Virus record (IMG/VR): IMGVR_UViG_3300033074_000711
Span: 64,001 to 128,000 of that record
Strand: one strand, 5' to 3'
DNA length: 64,000 nt
From: a virus
Taxonomy: Duplodnaviria > Caudoviricetes
The stretch's first letter is position 1; each line of letters begins with the position of its first letter. A program made the position numbers and the translations under genes. Positions 7,210-19,970 of this stretch are shown here, in pieces. A model generated the notes under the pieces. The model was not told the DNA's origin and searched no databases. It was given only the letters and a program-made list of their open reading frames with translations.

Positions 7210-8162
7210 TAATTAACCTCATCAAGTATTTTTAAAATCATTGCAATAACATTTATTTCTTTATCAACAACAAACGCGTCATAATATTGATATTCAGCTA
7301 TTATAACTATTAAATTTTCAATATTAAAATTAATTAAACTATCTATATTATTATATAAATATGTAAAAAAGTCTATAAAATTTTTAACATGATTGTTAGC
7401 TATAATTTTTCTTATATTTTTATATGTTGTTTGTTTATTTTTTTTATAGTTAATTAACTCTTTTAAAATCTCTTCTTTATAATCACTTAAATTTGATAGA
7501 TTTTTATCTAATAACAAAACACCATCTTTATTATACCACTGTATTAACTGTAATAATTTTCTAATATCTGGATAATATTGATTTATTAATATAACTAAAT
7601 CATCTAATGAAAATTTAATATTTTCCTTTTCTAATATAATACTTAAATGTGTTGCTACATCTGATTTATTAGGTGGTAAAATCTCAAGAACTGTACATCT
7701 TGATTTTATAGGGTCTATTATTTTTTCAAGATAATTACAAGTAAAAATAAATCTAACATTATTACTATATTCTTCAATAACTGAACGTAACGCAGCCATC
7801 GAAGATTGTGATAAATAATCAGCTTCATCTAATATTATAATTTTATAACCTGTTAACGAAACTGTTGATGCGTATGGTATTATTTTTTCTCTAACGACGT
7901 CAACACCATTATCATTCGATGCGTTTATATATAAACCATCACAATCGAAACTATTTATTAAAATTTTAGCTAAAGATGTTTTTCCCGTACCCGGTTTTCC
8001 GTGTAACAATAAATTGGGTATATCTTTATTTAAAATGTTATTTTTTAAAGTTTTCTTTAAGTTTTCAGAACCTATAAATGATTCTAAATTATCTGGTCTG
8101 TATTTTTCACAAAATAATGTACTATTTTTACTTGTTGGTTGACTTCTTTTTATTTTAAACAT
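7209..8162 (-). CDS. Clamp loader large subunit (RFC/gp44-like AAA+ ATPase)
   Basis: EKYRP, GKPGTGKT, ILDEAD, SRC motif. Confidence 0.95.
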   Translation of the reverse strand: MFKIKRSQPTSKNSTLFCEKYRPDNLESFIGSENLKKTLKNNILNKDIPNLLLHGKPGTGKTSLAKILINSFDCDGLYINASNDNGVDVVREKIIPYASTVSLTGYKIIILDEADYLSQSSMAALRSVIEEYSNNVRFIFTCNYLEKIIDPIKSRCTVLEILPPNKSDVATHLSIILEKENIKFSLDDLVILINQYYPDIRKLLQLIQWYNKDGVLLLDKNLSNLSDYKEEILKELINYKKNKQTTYKNIRKIIANNHVKNFIDFFTYLYNNIDSLINFNIENLIVIIAEYQYYDAFVVDKEINVIAMILKILDEVN

Positions 8163-8169
8163 GAAACTC

Positions 8170-8889
8170 CTAATTATATGAAACTAAAAAATAATCAGCA
8201 TTAAATACATCATTTTCTATCTTTAATTCAAACATACCATCTTCATAAATATTTATTAAAATGTTTTCATTTTTATATTTTGTTAATATTTTTGATAAAT
8301 ACTTGCAATTAAATTTTAAAGTATTTTCCATAATTTCCTTTTTTATATCACATTTATGTGAAATTCTAACTTTAGATGATGTTGTTTCATCACCGAAATT
8401 AAAATATAATTCATCATCAAATGCCGATAAACTAAACGTCTCATGGTTTATTGTCGATATTGATTTACAAATTTTATTATTTAAACTTTCATTTAATAAA
8501 AATGATACATTTGCTATAGGCATATCATTTATTTCTTCCAGCTGTTTATATAAACTAAGGTCTCTTAAACTATTTTCTATTTTAGAATTTTTATCAAATA
8601 AAATTAAAATACTACTAGTGTTATTATTATTTTGTATTAGCATTTCAATATCTTCATCTAAAATATCTAATAATTTGTTTATTTTAACTGAATCTAATAT
8701 ACCAATTTTAACATTTACCTTTAACTCATATTTATAATTAATATAACCAACTATAACTTGTTGTTCATCTATGAAATTACAATTTATAACATCATTATTA
8801 AAATTCCATATGACGCTATTAATTTTATCGGTTATTAAATATTTATCTATAAAATCTTGTAATACACTTTTTTTAATTTTTATATTCAT
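8170..8889 (-). CDS. Sliding clamp (gp45/PCNA-like), putative
   Basis: About 240 aa next to the clamp loader; FNCKYLSKIL and C-terminal DYFLV pattern. Confidence 0.65.
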   Translation of the reverse strand: MNIKIKKSVLQDFIDKYLITDKINSVIWNFNNDVINCNFIDEQQVIVGYINYKYELKVNVKIGILDSVKINKLLDILDEDIEMLIQNNNNTSSILILFDKNSKIENSLRDLSLYKQLEEINDMPIANVSFLLNESLNNKICKSISTINHETFSLSAFDDELYFNFGDETTSSKVRISHKCDIKKEIMENTLKFNCKYLSKILTKYKNENILINIYEDGMFELKIENDVFNADYFLVSYN

Positions 8890-14446: not shown

Positions 14447-15268
14447 TTATAAATCCTTAATTTTATTTAATTTATTTTTAAACTCTATTATTTCATTATT
14501 ACTTAAATTTTGTAAATCAGTTGAATTTATTAGATTTATGTCTATTATATTTTTAATAATATTTAATTCATCCTTACTGAATTTTAAGCTATTTAATTCA
14601 TAATCTTCAAAAGCTTCCCATGTTAATGGAAATAAATCTTTAATTATTTCTACAATTGCATTAGCATACTGACGTATTTCAAATTGAGCATGATAGTCTA
14701 ATCTTAATTTAAGAAAATGTAGTAAATTATGTAAATCAATTTTCCAATATGCTTCGGTATAATTAGATAATAGTAAATCTTTACGTGCTTGCTCTCTTGC
14801 TAAACCTAATTCTAATCTTTGTTTATATATATTTTTTGTTAGTATGTGTAGTTGACGTTCTTTTTCTGTTAAAATTTCACCAATATTTTTTTCTAAAAAA
14901 CCATCACTTCCTTGTTTGTTATCTTTAGATTGTAATCTCCATTCGTCGCTATTTGTATATTCATTTTCATCTATTGCTATAGAATATCTAGTTGAATATT
15001 CATTTACTGACGCAGTTCTATGTCTAATCCATTGCCTCCAAACATCTATTGGCACTTTTATATGAAATTTAATCTCACACATTTCTAACGGGCTTGTATG
15101 TTTATGTCTAACTAAATATCTAATTAATGCTCTATCTTGACTAACTGTTTTAGTTCCTTTACCATATGAAACTCTTGCGGCTTCAACTATAGCACCATCA
15201 CTTCCCATATAATCAACTAATCTTACAAAACCGTGCTTTAAAACATTTATTTTTTTATAATTATCCAT
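14447..15268 (-). CDS. thyX: FAD-dependent thymidylate synthase
   Basis: AARVSY, HTSPLE, RHRTASVNEYSTRY (RHRx7SxR), HAQFEIR. Confidence 0.97.
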   Translation of the reverse strand: MDNYKKINVLKHGFVRLVDYMGSDGAIVEAARVSYGKGTKTVSQDRALIRYLVRHKHTSPLEMCEIKFHIKVPIDVWRQWIRHRTASVNEYSTRYSIAIDENEYTNSDEWRLQSKDNKQGSDGFLEKNIGEILTEKERQLHILTKNIYKQRLELGLAREQARKDLLLSNYTEAYWKIDLHNLLHFLKLRLDYHAQFEIRQYANAIVEIIKDLFPLTWEAFEDYELNSLKFSKDELNIIKNIIDINLINSTDLQNLSNNEIIEFKNKLNKIKDL

Positions 15269-15298
15269 TAATATCTCACTAAAATTATCAATTTACAC

Positions 15299-16291
15299 TT
15301 ATAACTCACATTGGCCACCAGCACATGCTAACTCACCTTGTAAATCTGTTTCATCATCATCTTCTATAATTTTAGTTATATCAACTTCTTTTAAATGTGA
15401 CATCAAATCGTTATATTTTTCTTCTGTAATAGATTCAAACGGTGCTTGAATATATGTACCACCATCATAAGGAAGAACCGAAATACCATTATAACCATTT
15501 CTATTTTCCCATAACCATTTTCCAACAGATTCCCACTCATCATCTTTTATTGATATTGTAACACTAACATTATTATAATTAGAACCTTTGTTATGACCTT
15601 TCATAACCCATTCGGTGTTAAATTTTTTAACACGGTCTAATAATTTAAAAACACTTTCGGTTCTTATTTTAGCTGTTTCGGGTGCTTTTAATGGTATTGA
15701 GATAACTGATTGTAAATGTGGTTTAAAATAATCGTCTTCTAATAACTCTTTGTGTTTTTTATTTAAATATTTATATATAGCTTCATTTTTACCAACTCTA
15801 ATTCTTCTAATATAATATTTATCGTGATATGCGTGTATACCACTTGAAGTACCAAGAACTAAAGCTGATGTGCCACTTGGTTTAACTGTTGTTGTTCTCG
15901 CTGATGTGTTTATATTTAATATCTTAGAAACTCTTTTATTTTCTTTCACTACAATTTTACTGGCTTCTTCTAAATTCAAATTATCTAATGCACCACTTGC
16001 GATACCAGTTATACCAACACCAATTAACGCATCTTTTTCTGTTGATTCTTTCCATACACTTCTTAAATAATGAAAATCTGTATAGCCAGCTTGTAATGTT
16101 GCTATAAACGATGCCACTCTGGCTCTGTTATTAAAATCTTCTTGATTTTCTATGTTGCTAGCATTTATTTCAACTAGATTACAAAATGAAAATGGTTTTA
16201 AGGAAATTTCTGAACAATCTACATTCAAAATACTGTTATCCAAGTGTGTTGAATTTTGTTTTGTGTGCTTTTTAATACTATTTATTTTCAT
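15299..16291 (-). CDS. nrdJ: Class II (B12-dependent, monomeric RTPR-like) ribonucleotide reductase, C-terminal fragment with a 25-aa N-terminal intein-C piece
   Basis: CSEISL..FCNLVE, TTVKPSGT, QAPFE, C-terminal CAGGQCEL. Confidence 0.92.
   Translation of the reverse strand: MKINSIKKHTKQNSTHLDNSILNVDCSEISLKPFSFCNLVEINASNIENQEDFNNRARVASFIATLQAGYTDFHYLRSVWKESTEKDALIGVGITGIASGALDNLNLEEASKIVVKENKRVSKILNINTSARTTTVKPSGTSALVLGTSSGIHAYHDKYYIRRIRVGKNEAIYKYLNKKHKELLEDDYFKPHLQSVISIPLKAPETAKIRTESVFKLLDRVKKFNTEWVMKGHNKGSNYNNVSVTISIKDDEWESVGKWLWENRNGYNGISVLPYDGGTYIQAPFESITEEKYNDLMSHLKEVDITKIIEDDDETDLQGELACAGGQCEL
16217..16291 (-). other. Split intein C-fragment (25 aa, MKINSIKK...SILNVD followed by Cys+1)
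   Basis: Precedes CSEISL, which continues the NrdJ motif TNP-C-SEISL. Confidence 0.65.
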
Positions 16292-17597
16292 AATTTTCCA
16301 TTAATATTTTTATTAAATTATCAACAGTATTATAATATTTTACTATTGATTTTATTCCTATTTTTGCATTTATTTTATTTATTTCACGCTTTCTTATCAA
16401 TAATATCTCATTTAAATTTTGTTTTTTTAACATACTAATAACATAATTTAAAGACGTATCTAATATCCATTTATCTAAAAATATAATTATTGATGTTTTT
16501 CCCATTTTAATATGTGTTGTTTTTTTCTTTTCTTTTCTAATACACACTTTACATAATTTTTCCGATTCTTTTTTTATTTTATTTATAATATTATCACAAT
16601 TTTTACATTTAATATTATAATCATATTTTAATAAACTTTTTTTAAAATTTGTTTTAGCTAGTGATTCTGCTCTCTTAATTTTACTTTCTTTTGATAAATT
16701 TTGTTCTCTTATTTTAGCTCGTTGTGAAGCCTTATCATATAAAGTTGGGTCATCTATATATCTTTGTTTTTGTGAATTTGATAATTTTTTTCTATATTCT
16801 GGATTTTTTCCTAATTCTTTTAACTTTTTACTAATTTTTTTACGTGTTTGTTCAGTAACTATTGCTCCATATCTTGGATTTAATTTACCAACATTAGTTC
16901 TATTAGTATTTGGTGAATTTTTCCAATTTTGTAATTTATTTTTTAATTCTATACTAACTTCTTCATCAAAGTTTGTTACAATTTCATATAAAATGTTATT
17001 TTTATTAAAATATTCTATAACTAGTTTATATTTATCGGTTATTATAAAGCTTTTATCTTTTACTTCTAATAATTTAACTAATATGTTATCTTTATAAATA
17101 AAAAAGTCAGGTTTATAGTTAAATTTATTATCTATATTAAACATATATTCTTCATATCGTATGTTGTTTATGCCATATTTATTTGACAATATATGATAAT
17201 ATAAAAATTCATTAGATGAGCGACAATAACATGAAACACCATCGATTTCAAACGAACCACTACAGCCACGACTGTTAAATTTTTTTAAATGTTTTTTAGC
17301 AACATCACTTCTATTTGTATTTTTATAACTAACAGACATAAATTCATTTGAATATTTTTTATAATTAACGTTAGCTTGTTCAAAATTCATATTCTTTCTT
17401 AAAATCCAATATGATAAACTACACTTTGAATTAGAACTATTAATAAATTTAACTATCTCAATAGCATCATTTTTATTTATATTAAAAATATTTATTTGTA
17501 AATAATTTATTGTATTAATTAAAAATTTAGAAAATCCTTTTCTTATTTTTTTATTTGCTAAAAATTCTATCTTATTTTGCAAAACATCATCATTCAT
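16278..17597 (-). mobile_element. Free-standing homing endonuclease (PD-(D/E)XK type with NUMOD3-like DNA-binding repeats) inside fractured nrdJ
   Basis: RSSNE, YE..., YKPDFF...LLEVK; GKLNPRYG...EQTRKKIS; lies between the two nrdJ halves. Confidence 0.8.
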
Positions 17598-17636
17598 AAC
17601 AATATCTCATTTTAATATATTAATAAATATATAAAA

Positions 17637-19112
17637 TTATAAAATATCATCACATATTTCTAAATCTTTAGCAAATTTTTTACCAAATTGTGTGTTGATG
17701 ATTTCATATGGATAAAAATATATTGATTCATTTATTTCAATTTTTTCTTCACCAAATGTTTCGTCACAACAATAATTAGCAAAAAAATTAAAGTTCGGTG
17801 TTGCAGTTAAATCATAAACTGGTTCATTATAATTTAATTTTTCGACTTTAATAATATTTACTATCCTATTATACCCTAATACATTAACAATTTCACCATT
17901 ATTTAAATTGTTGATTGTATTTTGTACAGAGATTTCTGAAAAATCTTCTTTATAAAACTTATGGGTAATATTAGTTAATTGAAAACAACCATTATTAAAA
18001 TAAATTTTATATATATTATCATCTTTATTTGTTATTCCACACCAATTTAATTCAGATTCAAATAACTCACCATATTTATCTTGTGTAATAATCTTAATAT
18101 TTTTATCACTATTATATATTTTTGATAGTTTTTGTATTTCTACAAATCCTTTATTAGTTAATACTTTTGTTGAACCAACAACGCAAGGATTTGTACCAAC
18201 TTCCTTATCATTAGAAAATAAAAATCCAGGTTCACCTGATTTAGATAATTCTATTTTTTTCCAAAGTTTGTTAAAATCTTCTTCTTTAATTCTATGTCTT
18301 AGTAAAACAACACTGTTATTAGCTCTTGCTCTCTGTGGATTTAACTCCCACCAATTACCGAATTTACACGATAACATATCTTCATCATCAAAACTAAATA
18401 ATGAAATTAATGCGGCTCTCCTTATTCCACCAGCTAATACAGCATCTGCTATATAACAAATTATATCATGTGCTTGTATTGATTTTAATTTTTCACCTTC
18501 ACCGACACTATCTAATATTTTTTGAATATTATGTAAACAATCTTTTAATGGTTGGGGGCCTGGTGCTTTACCACCACTTGTGATTAATTTAGCACCTTTT
18601 GGTCTAATATCACTAAAATCAAAATTTGGTAAATGACTTCCGTTAAAATATGCATTCATTAAAACTTTAACAGCATCAGCCCATCCTTCTATACTATCAC
18701 CTATCAAATATCTTTTTAATTTACCCGGTTTTTTTATAGATGGTAATTTTTTAATATGGTGTTTTTGAACGCTAACACCAACACCAGAACCACCTAATAA
18801 TAAAAACATTATTTCTTGAAATGATTCTACTGCATCTACTGGTAAAAAAGAACAATTGTAAATTCTATTTGGTGAAATTTCTATTGATTTACCAGCAAAT
18901 TGTAAACTTCGCATTGATGGTAAAACTTTTTTATCATAAACATATTTATATGCTTCTTCTATTTCATCTTTTAAATTTTGATGTTTTTTTAAATGCATTT
19001 CTTTATTTCTTGTAACTAATTCATACCAATTTTCTCTTCTTTTTTTATGTGGTATGTATTTAGCATATTTCATATGTACTATAATATCTGATAAAATTTT
19101 ATTAGCTATCAT
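17637..19112 (-). CDS. nrdJ: Class II ribonucleotide reductase, N-terminal fragment fused to intein-N
   Basis: KYAKY..RRENW, LPSMRSLQFAG, YNCSF, GGIRRAALI, GEPG...GTNP then intein. Confidence 0.92.
   Translation of the reverse strand: MIANKILSDIIVHMKYAKYIPHKKRRENWYELVTRNKEMHLKKHQNLKDEIEEAYKYVYDKKVLPSMRSLQFAGKSIEISPNRIYNCSFLPVDAVESFQEIMFLLLGGSGVGVSVQKHHIKKLPSIKKPGKLKRYLIGDSIEGWADAVKVLMNAYFNGSHLPNFDFSDIRPKGAKLITSGGKAPGPQPLKDCLHNIQKILDSVGEGEKLKSIQAHDIICYIADAVLAGGIRRAALISLFSFDDEDMLSCKFGNWWELNPQRARANNSVVLLRHRIKEEDFNKLWKKIELSKSGEPGFLFSNDKEVGTNPCVVGSTKVLTNKGFVEIQKLSKIYNSDKNIKIITQDKYGELFESELNWCGITNKDDNIYKIYFNNGCFQLTNITHKFYKEDFSEISVQNTINNLNNGEIVNVLGYNRIVNIIKVEKLNYNEPVYDLTATPNFNFFANYCCDETFGEEKIEINESIYFYPYEIINTQFGKKFAKDLEICDDIL
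17640..18185 (-). other. Split intein N-fragment (182 aa)
   Basis: Block A CVVGSTKVLTNKG, block B-like LTNITHKF, block F EPVYDLTATPNFNFFAN, then a 44-aa tail. Confidence 0.85.
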
Positions 19113-19124
19113 AAATTTCCTTTT

Positions 19125-19313
19125 TTAAAAAAATTTTAAAATTTCATTCTTTGAAAATCCTGCTTTTAATAACATTTTAACAATATCATCTTTTTTATAA
19201 TTATTTTTTAATAAAATTTTAACAGCTTCTTTGTGATTCATACCGCCTAAAGCTTCAGCTCCGAATTCACTTAATTTTAATGTTTCTAATGCTACTTTAA
19301 CTTGATTATTCAT
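19125..19313 (-). CDS. Hypothetical protein
   Basis: Short ORF in the operon. Confidence 0.55.
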   Translation of the reverse strand: MNNQVKVALETLKLSEFGAEALGGMNHKEAVKILLKNNYKKDDIVKMLLKAGFSKNEILKFF

Positions 19314-19328
19314 TTTATTACTCTTTTT

Positions 19329-19970
19329 TTATTTTTTATCCATATAAAAACTTCTTAATAATAATAACACAGCCCAGCAATCATAACTTGCATCATGTAA
19401 TTTACTTTCATCAAACTTAATATCAGCACGTCTAAGACATTCTTTTAAATCTGGAATACATTCATCATTAACAATATCTGTATATAATATAGCTGGATCT
19501 AAAATCCTATGTCTATAGCATAAATTATAATCATTATAAAATAAATTAAAATTATTTTGTATGATAGGAATATCAAAATTTGATATATTTTTTCCAGCTA
19601 AATTTAATAATACTTTTGGAAAAATATATTTTATTTTTTCTTCACCGTCAACTGTAAATTTATATTTTTCTATTTTTTCAAATGGAATTTCTAAACATTT
19701 ATAAACAAATTCTATAACATATTTGATAACATCTTTAGGTTTTACTAAAATATCTGGATTATTTTCTATAAACGTTAATAATTTACTATTAAATTTTAAT
19801 GTTTGTGGTGAACCTATCAGTGGTATATTTTCTATATATAGATTTAATTTTGGTAAATCTTCTAATGGTAATTGCTTATCAGTATCTTCAAATATCATTG
19901 TAAATTGTAAAACTTGTGCATCTTTTACTGATGTATCTGTAGTTTCGGTATCAATTATAAAATATTTCAT
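19329..19970 (-). CDS. DEDDh 3'-5' exonuclease (DnaQ-like)
   Basis: IDTETT, NISNFD, HDASYD. Confidence 0.88.
   Translation of the reverse strand: MKYFIIDTETTDTSVKDAQVLQFTMIFEDTDKQLPLEDLPKLNLYIENIPLIGSPQTLKFNSKLLTFIENNPDILVKPKDVIKYVIEFVYKCLEIPFEKIEKYKFTVDGEEKIKYIFPKVLLNLAGKNISNFDIPIIQNNFNLFYNDYNLCYRHRILDPAILYTDIVNDECIPDLKECLRRADIKFDESKLHDASYDCWAVLLLLRSFYMDKK

Follow-up and report, generated by a model that had tools for sequence, protein, structure and literature searches.

Our analysis of a 64,000-nt stretch of Caudoviricetes DNA (the window; IMG/VR record IMGVR_UViG_3300033074_000711, positions 64,001–128,000) reveals a ribonucleotide reductase (RNR) gene that is broken inside an intein. 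The break falls after the block F strands but before the block G strand and leaves an unusually short C-terminal intein fragment (IntC, 25 residues), which makes the split S11-like, a term that here means working like the engineered examples and not descent from them. The element is probably a one-step trans-splicing intein that is split inside a family-specific insert between blocks F and G (the F–G insert) and is held together by that insert as a clasp. We give roughly even chances to the more specific proposal that this is a natural split-intein family in which the F–G mini-domain is a self-contained two-strand clasp and an IntC of 24–29 residues finds and completes an N-terminal intein fragment (IntN) of 180 residues. 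The relevant features of the window are as follows:

17637–19112, minus strand: N-fragment gene (491 aa in the ORF list), comprising a class II RNR N-extein (residues 1–309) and IntN (residues 310–491)
17781–18185, minus strand: intein Hint core, with Cys1 (18183–18185), block B His384, and block F Asp434 (partial TIGR01445 and PF14890 matches)
17640–17780, minus strand: N-side of the F–G insert, 47 aa including the 44-aa tail C448–L491, with an acidic strand at the natural break (from alignments)
16278–17597, minus strand: free-standing ORF of 439 aa in the gap, encoding a putative homing endonuclease (homologues at the same position; NUMOD3)
16253–16291, minus strand: IntC head, residues 1–13, a basic strand M-K-I-N-S-I-K-K... 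forming the C-side of the F–G insert (conserved start)
16217–16252, minus strand: rest of IntC, residues 14–25, a short linker or helix and then the block G strand S-I-L-N-V-D (conserved G strand)
15299–16216, minus strand: RNR C-extein, starting at Cys26, which is the active-site Cys conserved in the NPC(G/S)E loop (PHROG 367)

The two outer ORFs each encode an extein and part of the intein and have a free-standing nuclease gene between them, as fractured genes often do. The N-fragment product matches PHROG 367 ribonucleotide reductase (E 4e-67) and Pfam RNR-II_ins_dom, and the C-extein matches PHROG 367 (E 2e-58), with TIGR02505 RTPR aligned to residues 24–49. The intein starts at Cys310, directly after TNP. 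Along the minus strand, the N-fragment then carries blocks A, B, and F, with the block B His (H384) in N-x-x-H and Asp434 within block F (residues 432–447; window 17772–17819), followed by the 44-aa tail (C448–L491; 17640–17771) and a TAA stop codon. The Pfam Intein_splicing model (PF14890) aligns intein residues 109–137 with profile positions 121–149 of 155, which correspond to block F and lie within the N-fragment. The C-fragment ORF spans 15299–16291; its first 25 residues (16217–16291) are IntC, which ends in ..SILNVD with a terminal Asp, immediately followed by the catalytic Cys26 of the extein. IntN thus comprises 182 aa and IntC 25 aa, and the break sits 44 aa past block F. An Rfam scan of window positions 15000–19400 gave no match.

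The tail and the IntC head together make a piece of 44 + 13 = 57 aa that opens with Cys448 and closes with Asn13, Ser14 being the next residue (16253–17771). An earlier note on this DNA had singled out this piece, describing it as a segment of ~57 aa after block F that starts with Cys and ends with Asn followed by Ser; the layout was confirmed on the minus strand. It had also noticed one motif in the tail and one in IntC; both proved to be real conserved features of the family rather than chance resemblances, namely G-x-K-F-A..L..D-E-I, which closes the tail, and M-x-I-x-K-I-K, which opens IntC.

A HMMER search of 1.84 billion representatives gave 70 matches, 27 of them with the block F and insert of this family. 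About 17 whole N-fragments, and a further 2–3 short ORF fragments, stop at the same point as the N-fragment in the window, and 8 relatives are contiguous, with an uninterrupted F–G insert of 25–68 aa. The tail end and the head are conserved among split members that fall in different 50%-identity clusters and share one common break point. IntC is 24–29 aa long at 8 loci and contains the head, a linker, and the G strand only; its M-x-I-x-K-I-K start is kept in all 8, with a head net charge of +1 to +5, and the G strand is conserved in the 8 IntC sequences and in the 8 contiguous relatives. The F–G insert was seen in no inteins other than those of RNRs at the TNP|C site. A profile search of 5.8 billion proteins with the longer insert lengths, the reach of which is limited by its word index, gave 11 matches: all 9 that carry a Pfam domain are RNRs, and the other 2 are short fragments of this intein family. 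The recurrence of the piece at other fractured genes, which the earlier note had proposed to look for by profile search, was thus not seen. No close relative of the intein was found by tblastn and blastn against annotated phages, and an initial IMG/VR scan with a single protein gave no match.

The intein as a whole appears to be class 1-like, with Cys1, the block B His, the block F Asp, and the +1 nucleophile in place and a Hint fold in the models described below. In particular, every one of 24 family members has C1, His B:10, and Asp F:4, and Cys+1 and the terminal Asp are each present in 16 of 16 C-termini. The family is atypical in having Asn at B:7 (no block B Thr), Val at G:6 (no penultimate His), and Asp at G:7: the intein ends in Val-Asp across the family and in Glu-Asp in one member (L166), and the canonical His-Asn of block G was not encountered. 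Since cyclisation can also proceed from a terminal Asp or Gln instead of Asn (PMC4031507), the terminal Asp marks a variant class 1 intein and does not exclude the assignment.

AlphaFold2 models of two contiguous relatives, L095 (pLDDT 86) and P0015/L163 (pLDDT 89.8), show a normal Hint fold with a small, beta-rich insert. IntC rows were left out of the folding alignment, MAFFT having placed the heads on the N-terminal strand of the intein. Both models superimpose on solved mini-inteins with Z 15–17 and an rmsd of about 2 Å over 134–140 residues. VIA-align to the NrdJ-1 intein (8ubs) gave Z 16.7 with only 140 of ~205 residues aligned, which places the insert outside the canonical Hint fold, and an Atlas shape search with the whole model matched the Hint core alone (137–151 residues). 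In the models, the N-side of the insert forms short beta strands, the G strand closes the Hint fold, and the insert is predicted at pLDDT 80–90, not as disorder. L163 carries the tail and the head joined by 3 residues, with a short modelled strand on each side of that turn, and the natural break maps to this three-residue turn. L095 is contiguous yet has no head strand, which indicates that folding in cis does not require the head.

The charge pattern is consistent with pairing of the two ends of the insert. Specifically, in 8 of 8 IntN/IntC pairs, the net charge is 0 to −4 over the last 10 residues of the tail and +1 to +5 over the first 10 of the head. The magnitudes of the two charges are not significantly correlated over the 8 pairs (r = −0.64, p = 0.08), a relation that had looked strong with 7 pairs, and Lys-rich heads are to be expected at 23% genomic GC. 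Complex prediction with IntN residues 305–491 and the first 45 C-fragment residues gave ipSAE values of 0.23, 0.35, and 0.18 (mark, 0.34), which weigh neither way on binding; pairing of tail and head was judged from secondary-structure strings and sequence. The earlier note had offered, as one reading, a reduced Hint relic reused as a heterodimerisation clasp. The clasp half of that reading gains from the conserved ends, the opposite charges, and the adjacent strands in the model of the fused relative, and we infer from these that the tail and head touch in the split protein and that the insert serves as a heterodimerisation clasp, one presumably needed for fragment association. The relic half is unsupported: an insert profile aligned with the profile of the family's own Hint core had an hhalign probability of 0.24%, and a PDB profile search with the insert alignment (A6) gave chance-level matches only (E 0.11 or higher), with no intein among them. 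Smith-Waterman comparison with the window's own Hint core (2000 shuffles) likewise gave no sign of internal duplication (tail, p = 0.19; head, p = 0.97; tail plus head, p = 0.42), and an ESM Atlas feature search with the insert returned unnamed clusters only.

The other reading in the earlier note was a nested intein, in which the 57-aa piece splices first, from Cys448/449 to Asn13|Ser14, to give a contiguous outer intein that then splices itself. Its appeal is that the piece begins Cys-Cys and ends in Asn followed by Ser, and that the tail-end and head motifs superficially resemble canonical IntN ends and IntC starts. The junction residues, however, are found together in the window alone, and neither is conserved among the 27 representatives, the 8 IntC sequences, or the 8 contiguous relatives on which conservation was checked. 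Cys448 occurs in 1 of 27 and Cys449 in 2 of 27 cluster representatives, the inner N-terminal positions being occupied elsewhere by Asp, Gly, Asn, Ile, Tyr, His, Arg, or Lys; Asn13-Ser14 occurs in 1 of 8 IntC sequences, that of the window, and at the aligned position in 0 of 8 contiguous relatives, and the closest relative (L001) has Gln-Asn-Ile there. The contiguous relatives carry the same insert without the inner junction residues. The piece has no His in a block B-like position, matches no Pfam or NCBIfam intein model at E up to 10, and at 57 aa is far below the minimum Hint domain of ~130–135 aa (PMC2664965). Its removal, said to leave a contiguous F–G region, does not restore a canonical F–G junction, because the insert begins ~3 residues earlier and extends to just before SILNVD; even the shortest contiguous relative keeps 25 aa between F and G. 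We regard nested splicing as extremely improbable, and conclude that the 57-aa piece belongs to an additional, conserved mini-domain that separates the final two strands of the intein, and is not an intein inside an intein. An Asn followed by Ser, Thr, or Cys is not improbable by chance within an Asn-rich 25-aa peptide.

Two further explanations accept a single intein and dispute what it does. The insert could be a neutral relic of an older in-frame domain or of the flanks of the invading nuclease gene, the fragments associating by G-strand docking alone, as in engineered S11 splits. Engineered IntC fragments of 6–16 aa can indeed splice clasp-free (PMC2664965, PMC11766414), the contiguous insert varies from 25 to 68 aa, with most of it missing in some relatives, and L095 lacks the head strand; but the retention of tail end and head at a common break point across 50%-identity clusters, the opposite charges in every pair, and the ordered prediction of the insert make neutrality unlikely. 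Less probable still is a degenerate intein that no longer splices, with the RNR halves held as a non-covalent complex by the intein pieces. Such an arrangement would fit the atypical residues at B:7, G:6, and G:7, and it has a precedent in the NrdA of Aeromonas phage Aeh1 (Crona et al. 2011, PMC3045599), a split RNR that is reported to be assembled without splicing, through interaction domains that come from a mobile element. Against it, the reductase is broken immediately ahead of its active-site Cys in the NPC loop, where a bulky Hint domain of ~200 aa would stay at the catalytic centre; the catalytic residues from C1 to Cys+1 are invariant, and the terminal Asp among them is compatible with splicing; and the contiguous relatives must excise their intein to make a normal enzyme. 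These points lead us to infer that the intein splices.

Under the one-step trans-splicing reading, the piece represents both halves of a small, beta-rich, family-specific insert of ~50–70 aa in the F–G loop of a class 1-like intein, which occupies the TNP|C site of the RNR; the intein gene is broken inside this insert, in the window by the free-standing nuclease gene. IntN thus holds nearly the whole Hint fold, and IntC contributes just three elements: the basic strand of the head, a short linker, and the closing G strand. The acidic tail end (..D-D-I-L) and the basic IntC head would pair as neighbouring strands to form the clasp, and the clasp would dock the G strand into the Hint core, bringing Asp25 and Cys+1 to the active site. 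One ordinary round of trans-splicing would then proceed: Cys310 would undergo an N–S shift, trans-thioesterification to Cys26 would follow, the terminal Asp would cyclise where other inteins use Asn, and an S–N shift would finish the reaction. The product would be an intact ..TNP-CSE.. reductase.

Like the fractured genes NrdJ-1, NrdA-2, and gp41-1 (Dassa et al. 2009, PMC2677866), the window has a phage-type RNR gene in two ORFs, each with extein and intein parts, a free-standing nuclease gene between them, insertion directly before the thiyl-radical Cys, which is the commonest site for RNR inteins (PMC2677866), and opposite charges on the interface strands. Those inteins, however, are split between blocks B and F, have an IntC of ~35–40 aa, end in His-Asn, and are accompanied by GIY-YIG or Vsr-like nucleases, whereas the window intein is split after block F in an extra insert, has an IntC of 25 aa, ends in Val-Asp, and is accompanied by a PD-(D/E)xK-like nuclease with NUMOD3 that belongs to another, unassigned family. 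The position of the break is like that of the engineered Ssp GyrB S11, Ssp DnaB S11, and Npu DnaE C15 splits (PMC2664965, PMC11766414), in which IntN likewise holds almost the whole Hint fold and a short peptide brings the last strand and the terminal cyclising residue. The S11 and C15/C16 splits are artificial, placed in a tight loop that holds no extra domain; the window split is natural, recurs in many phage contigs, and lies in a ~50–70-aa insert that apparently adds one pairing strand to each fragment. AceL-TerL, GOS-TerL, and VidaL are also natural, strongly asymmetric splits in genes from phages or metagenomes, and a nuclease gene often fills the gap, but the asymmetry is reversed: their short piece is N-terminal, their split falls between blocks A and B, and they have no added clasp domain. 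Aeh1 NrdA is likewise an RNR large subunit interrupted by a mobile endonuclease gene, and the extra sequence where it is broken is thought to act as protein interaction domains, as proposed here; it has no intein and no ligation, however, and is broken elsewhere in the enzyme (PMC3045599). A 2025 review lists splits near the C-terminus as synthetic only (PMC11766414), and neither a natural split at an S11-like position nor such a clasp was found in the searchable literature.

Short C-terminal split-intein fragments that can be made by peptide synthesis have long been wanted by protein chemists. Engineered splits near the C-terminus are functional, and it is by engineering that short-IntC splits have been obtained so far, often with losses in solubility or rate (PMC2664965, PMC11766414). 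A recurrent natural family that combines an IntC of 24–29 aa, short enough to synthesise, with an apparent docking module of its own would offer a ready-made, evolution-tested scaffold; the clasp might be transferable to other inteins, and its addition in the F–G loop would follow as a design idea. The analysis also removes the claim of an intein within an intein, for which there is no evidence here.

The split would be a second natural position for intein fracture by nuclease genes, beyond the classical B/F site. A Hint-core tree rooted on two canonical RNR inteins is star-like and gives no order for insert gain, split, and re-fusion. The break point is identical whether the gap contains a nuclease ORF or just 1–91 nt. 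In the window, the 439-aa gap ORF is a putative homing endonuclease with a PD-(D/E)xK-like core (Y-K-P-D-F..E-x-K), a NUMOD3 motif, and two CxxC pairs. Homologues occupy the same position in L092, L096, and L017 (BLASTP E 1e-55 to 6e-39) and also in L165, L166, and L170, and NUMOD3 was matched in 4 of 4 members of the ORF family (best E 6.6e-07).

The ribonucleotide reductase (RNR) locus of the window carries an intein that is split in nature, at a late site, and that has an extra insert between its blocks F and G, for which a docking role is plausible. In particular, one adenosylcobalamin-type (class II) RNR is encoded in two pieces by 15299-19112 (minus strand), on an IMG/VR viral contig of 155,930 bp with a G+C content of 23%:

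17637-19112, minus strand: N-fragment, 491 aa; RNR N-terminal and insertion domains up to ..G-T-N-P, then the intein from Cys310
N-fragment residues 432-447, minus strand: block F
17640-17771, minus strand: tail (C448-L491), 44 residues past block F, then a stop
16278-17597, minus strand: gap ORF, 439 aa, between the N- and C-fragments
15299-16291, minus strand: C-fragment; opens with 25 residues ending S-I-L-N-V-D, then Cys26 and the remaining reductase

Intein residues 1-79 are matched by NCBIfam intein_Nterm; Pfam Intein_splicing positions 121-149 of 155 correspond to intein residues 109-137, which are block F; and the reductase part of the C-fragment, from Cys26 on, is matched by TIGR02505 and PHROG 367. 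The tail and the first 13 residues of the C-side intein part, IntC (the head), make up the 57-residue piece that the earlier note had singled out, and its coordinates, sequences and residue count all proved right on the window sequence. Directly downstream of the C-fragment lies what we take, from its ORF translation, to be a ThyX-type thymidylate synthase gene (14447-15268, minus strand); such an assignment, if right, would agree with a block of nucleotide-metabolism genes in this phage.

A profile of the window intein and one close relative (A1) gave 70 matches among 1.84 billion database representatives. In 27 of these, a near-invariant block F (V-Y-D-L-T-A-x-P-N-Y-N-F-F) is followed by extra sequence: about 17 are RNR N-fragments terminating at the window's alignment position, after G-x-K-F-A-x-x-L-x-E-x-D-E-I-(I/L); 2-3 are short ORF fragments with the same block F and tail; and 8 are uninterrupted RNRs, with 25-68 residues separating block F from S-I-L-(N/S)-V-D and the Cys after the junction. 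Judged by these alignments, the F-G insert is a derived feature of a single intein lineage, since remoter A1 matches, inserted in the RNR at this site too, show the usual junction (..H-N-F-F-A-N-G-(I/V)-L-V-H-N, then C). A search with an insert-only profile returned 11 proteins, and every one with a Pfam domain is an RNR.

Without exception, 24/24 members share Cys1, the His of block B and the Asp of block F, and 16/16 C-termini have the terminal Asp and Cys+1, the latter being the NPC-loop Cys of the RNR active site. Other catalytic-site residues are atypical (window 17640-18185, minus strand, and alignments A3/A5), with Asn for Thr at B:7 (21/24), no His in block F, and a Val-Asp end instead of His-Asn. 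A terminal Asp or Gln can cyclise in place of Asn (PMC4031507). Splicing would be the likeliest outcome for this family, because contiguous relatives would otherwise keep an insertion of 180-200 aa at the catalytic centre.

AlphaFold2 models of two contiguous relatives, L095 (pLDDT 86) and L163 (protein P0015; pLDDT 89.8, pTM 0.88), were built from small alignments. The L095 model aligns with solved mini-inteins from the first strand to the G strand (Z 15-16.7; best match 8ubs, an NrdJ-1 split-intein fusion, 140 residues at 2.2 Å), leaving ~60 residues between F and G unaligned, and ESM Atlas shape matches to the L163 model cover just 137-151 of 211 residues. The insert is confidently predicted in both models (block pLDDT mostly 80-91), as several strands of 2-4 residues, a single hairpin (..V-V-K-T / G-Q-K-F..) and, preceding the G strand, a short helix. 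P0015 amounts to the split form fused by nature: three residues separate its tail end (..D-E-I-F) from a strand resembling the head (T-K-I-T-K-I-I-K). Since short modelled strands (178-179 and 183-184) flank this three-residue turn, the point at which every split member is naturally broken is predicted to fall in a turn between two neighbouring strands. MAFFT alignment A4 (columns 20-29) sets five of five IntC heads (M-x-I-x-K-I..) on the intein's second strand (G-W-I-K-I-K-N-L), not on the fused head of P0015, probably through low-complexity likeness.

The earlier note had read the 57-residue piece either as an intein nested within the intein, spliced in two steps, or as a reduced relic of the Hint splicing-domain fold reused as a heterodimerisation clasp. 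At the aligned positions, Cys448 is present in 1/27 and Cys449 in 2/27 family sequences. The Asn-Ser end is confined to the window among eight IntC sequences from loci with both halves (window, L001, L015, L092, L096, L166, L167 and L169) and is absent from the eight contiguous relatives; L001, the window's closest relative, has Gln-Asn-Ile there. We reject nested two-step splicing, since neither the inner Cys nor Asn-Ser, on whose conservation the earlier note had itself staked the idea, is conserved. Neither a miniature Hint domain nor a Hint origin finds support, because the piece lacks a block B-type His, goes unmatched by the Pfam/NCBIfam intein models (E up to 10), does not resemble the Hint core of its own family in shuffled Smith-Waterman (p = 0.19 to 0.97) or profile-profile comparison (probability 0.24%), and brings up no intein when the PDB is searched by profile, though the PDB holds many split inteins. 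The tail of the window contains three Cys (Cys448, Cys449 and Cys486; 17640-17771, minus strand), none conserved across the family; isolated single Cys occur in other tails, e.g. ..F-A-C-D-L...

What stands of the proposal is the clasp, a plausible role for tail and head and the best available reading. Specifically, all eight pairs have a head starting M-x-I-x-K-I-K, in an IntC of 24-29 aa, and opposite net charges (0 to -4 over the ten residues that end the tail, +1 to +5 over the ten that open the head); the charge magnitudes track each other in seven pairs, and with eight the relation is not significant (r = -0.64, p = 0.08). In natural split inteins, interface strands are known to be oppositely charged (PMC2677866). 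The break point stays the same in loci with a nuclease gene in the gap (window, L092, L096, L017, L165, L166, L170) and in those where the gap is a mere 1-91 nt (L001, L015, L167, L169).

For natural split inteins, the described split site lies in the interval from block B to block F (PMC4031507, PMC2677866) or, rarely, in AceL-TerL and relatives, near the N-terminus, whereas the window family is split after block F. In the literature searched, of incomplete coverage, near-C-terminal splits (S11, C15/C16) are engineered constructs only (PMC2664965, PMC11766414), and we found no description of an F-G insert or of an intein that nature has split beyond block F.

The gap holds one family of free-standing ORFs of 350-440 aa at at least seven loci (window 16278-17597, minus strand; L092:6072-7331; L096:5648-6709; L017:6844-8121; L166:4984-6219; ORF starts in L165 and L170). 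They share S-R-G-x-S-G, R-S-x-x-E and Y-K-P-D-x-F-x-Y ... E-x-K (PD-(D/E)xK-like) motifs, a NUMOD3 motif and two CxxC pairs; no Pfam family matches them above threshold, and by sequence they have no relative in the PDB. L017 (contig Ga0209416_1000028, 183,716 bp) also carries a group I intron (8152-8379; Rfam RF00028, 99.7 bits, E 9e-27) immediately after the ..S-I-L-S-V-D-C-G codons, a few bases beyond the C-terminal splice junction; a single RNR hot spot therefore houses a split intein, two gap ORFs and an intron. L032:5124-7200 looks like a degenerate copy, with an N-fragment ORF lacking the NPC start, a GIY-YIG-like ORF in place of the usual nuclease family, and an S-T-L-N-V-D-C-G end out of frame with the C-extein after it. 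Four RNRs (P0008, P0018, P0021 and P0022) contain this intein plus a second, LAGLIDADG-containing intein at another, upstream site, and a single RNR gene is thus interrupted by both a classical large intein and a late-split or insert-bearing one.
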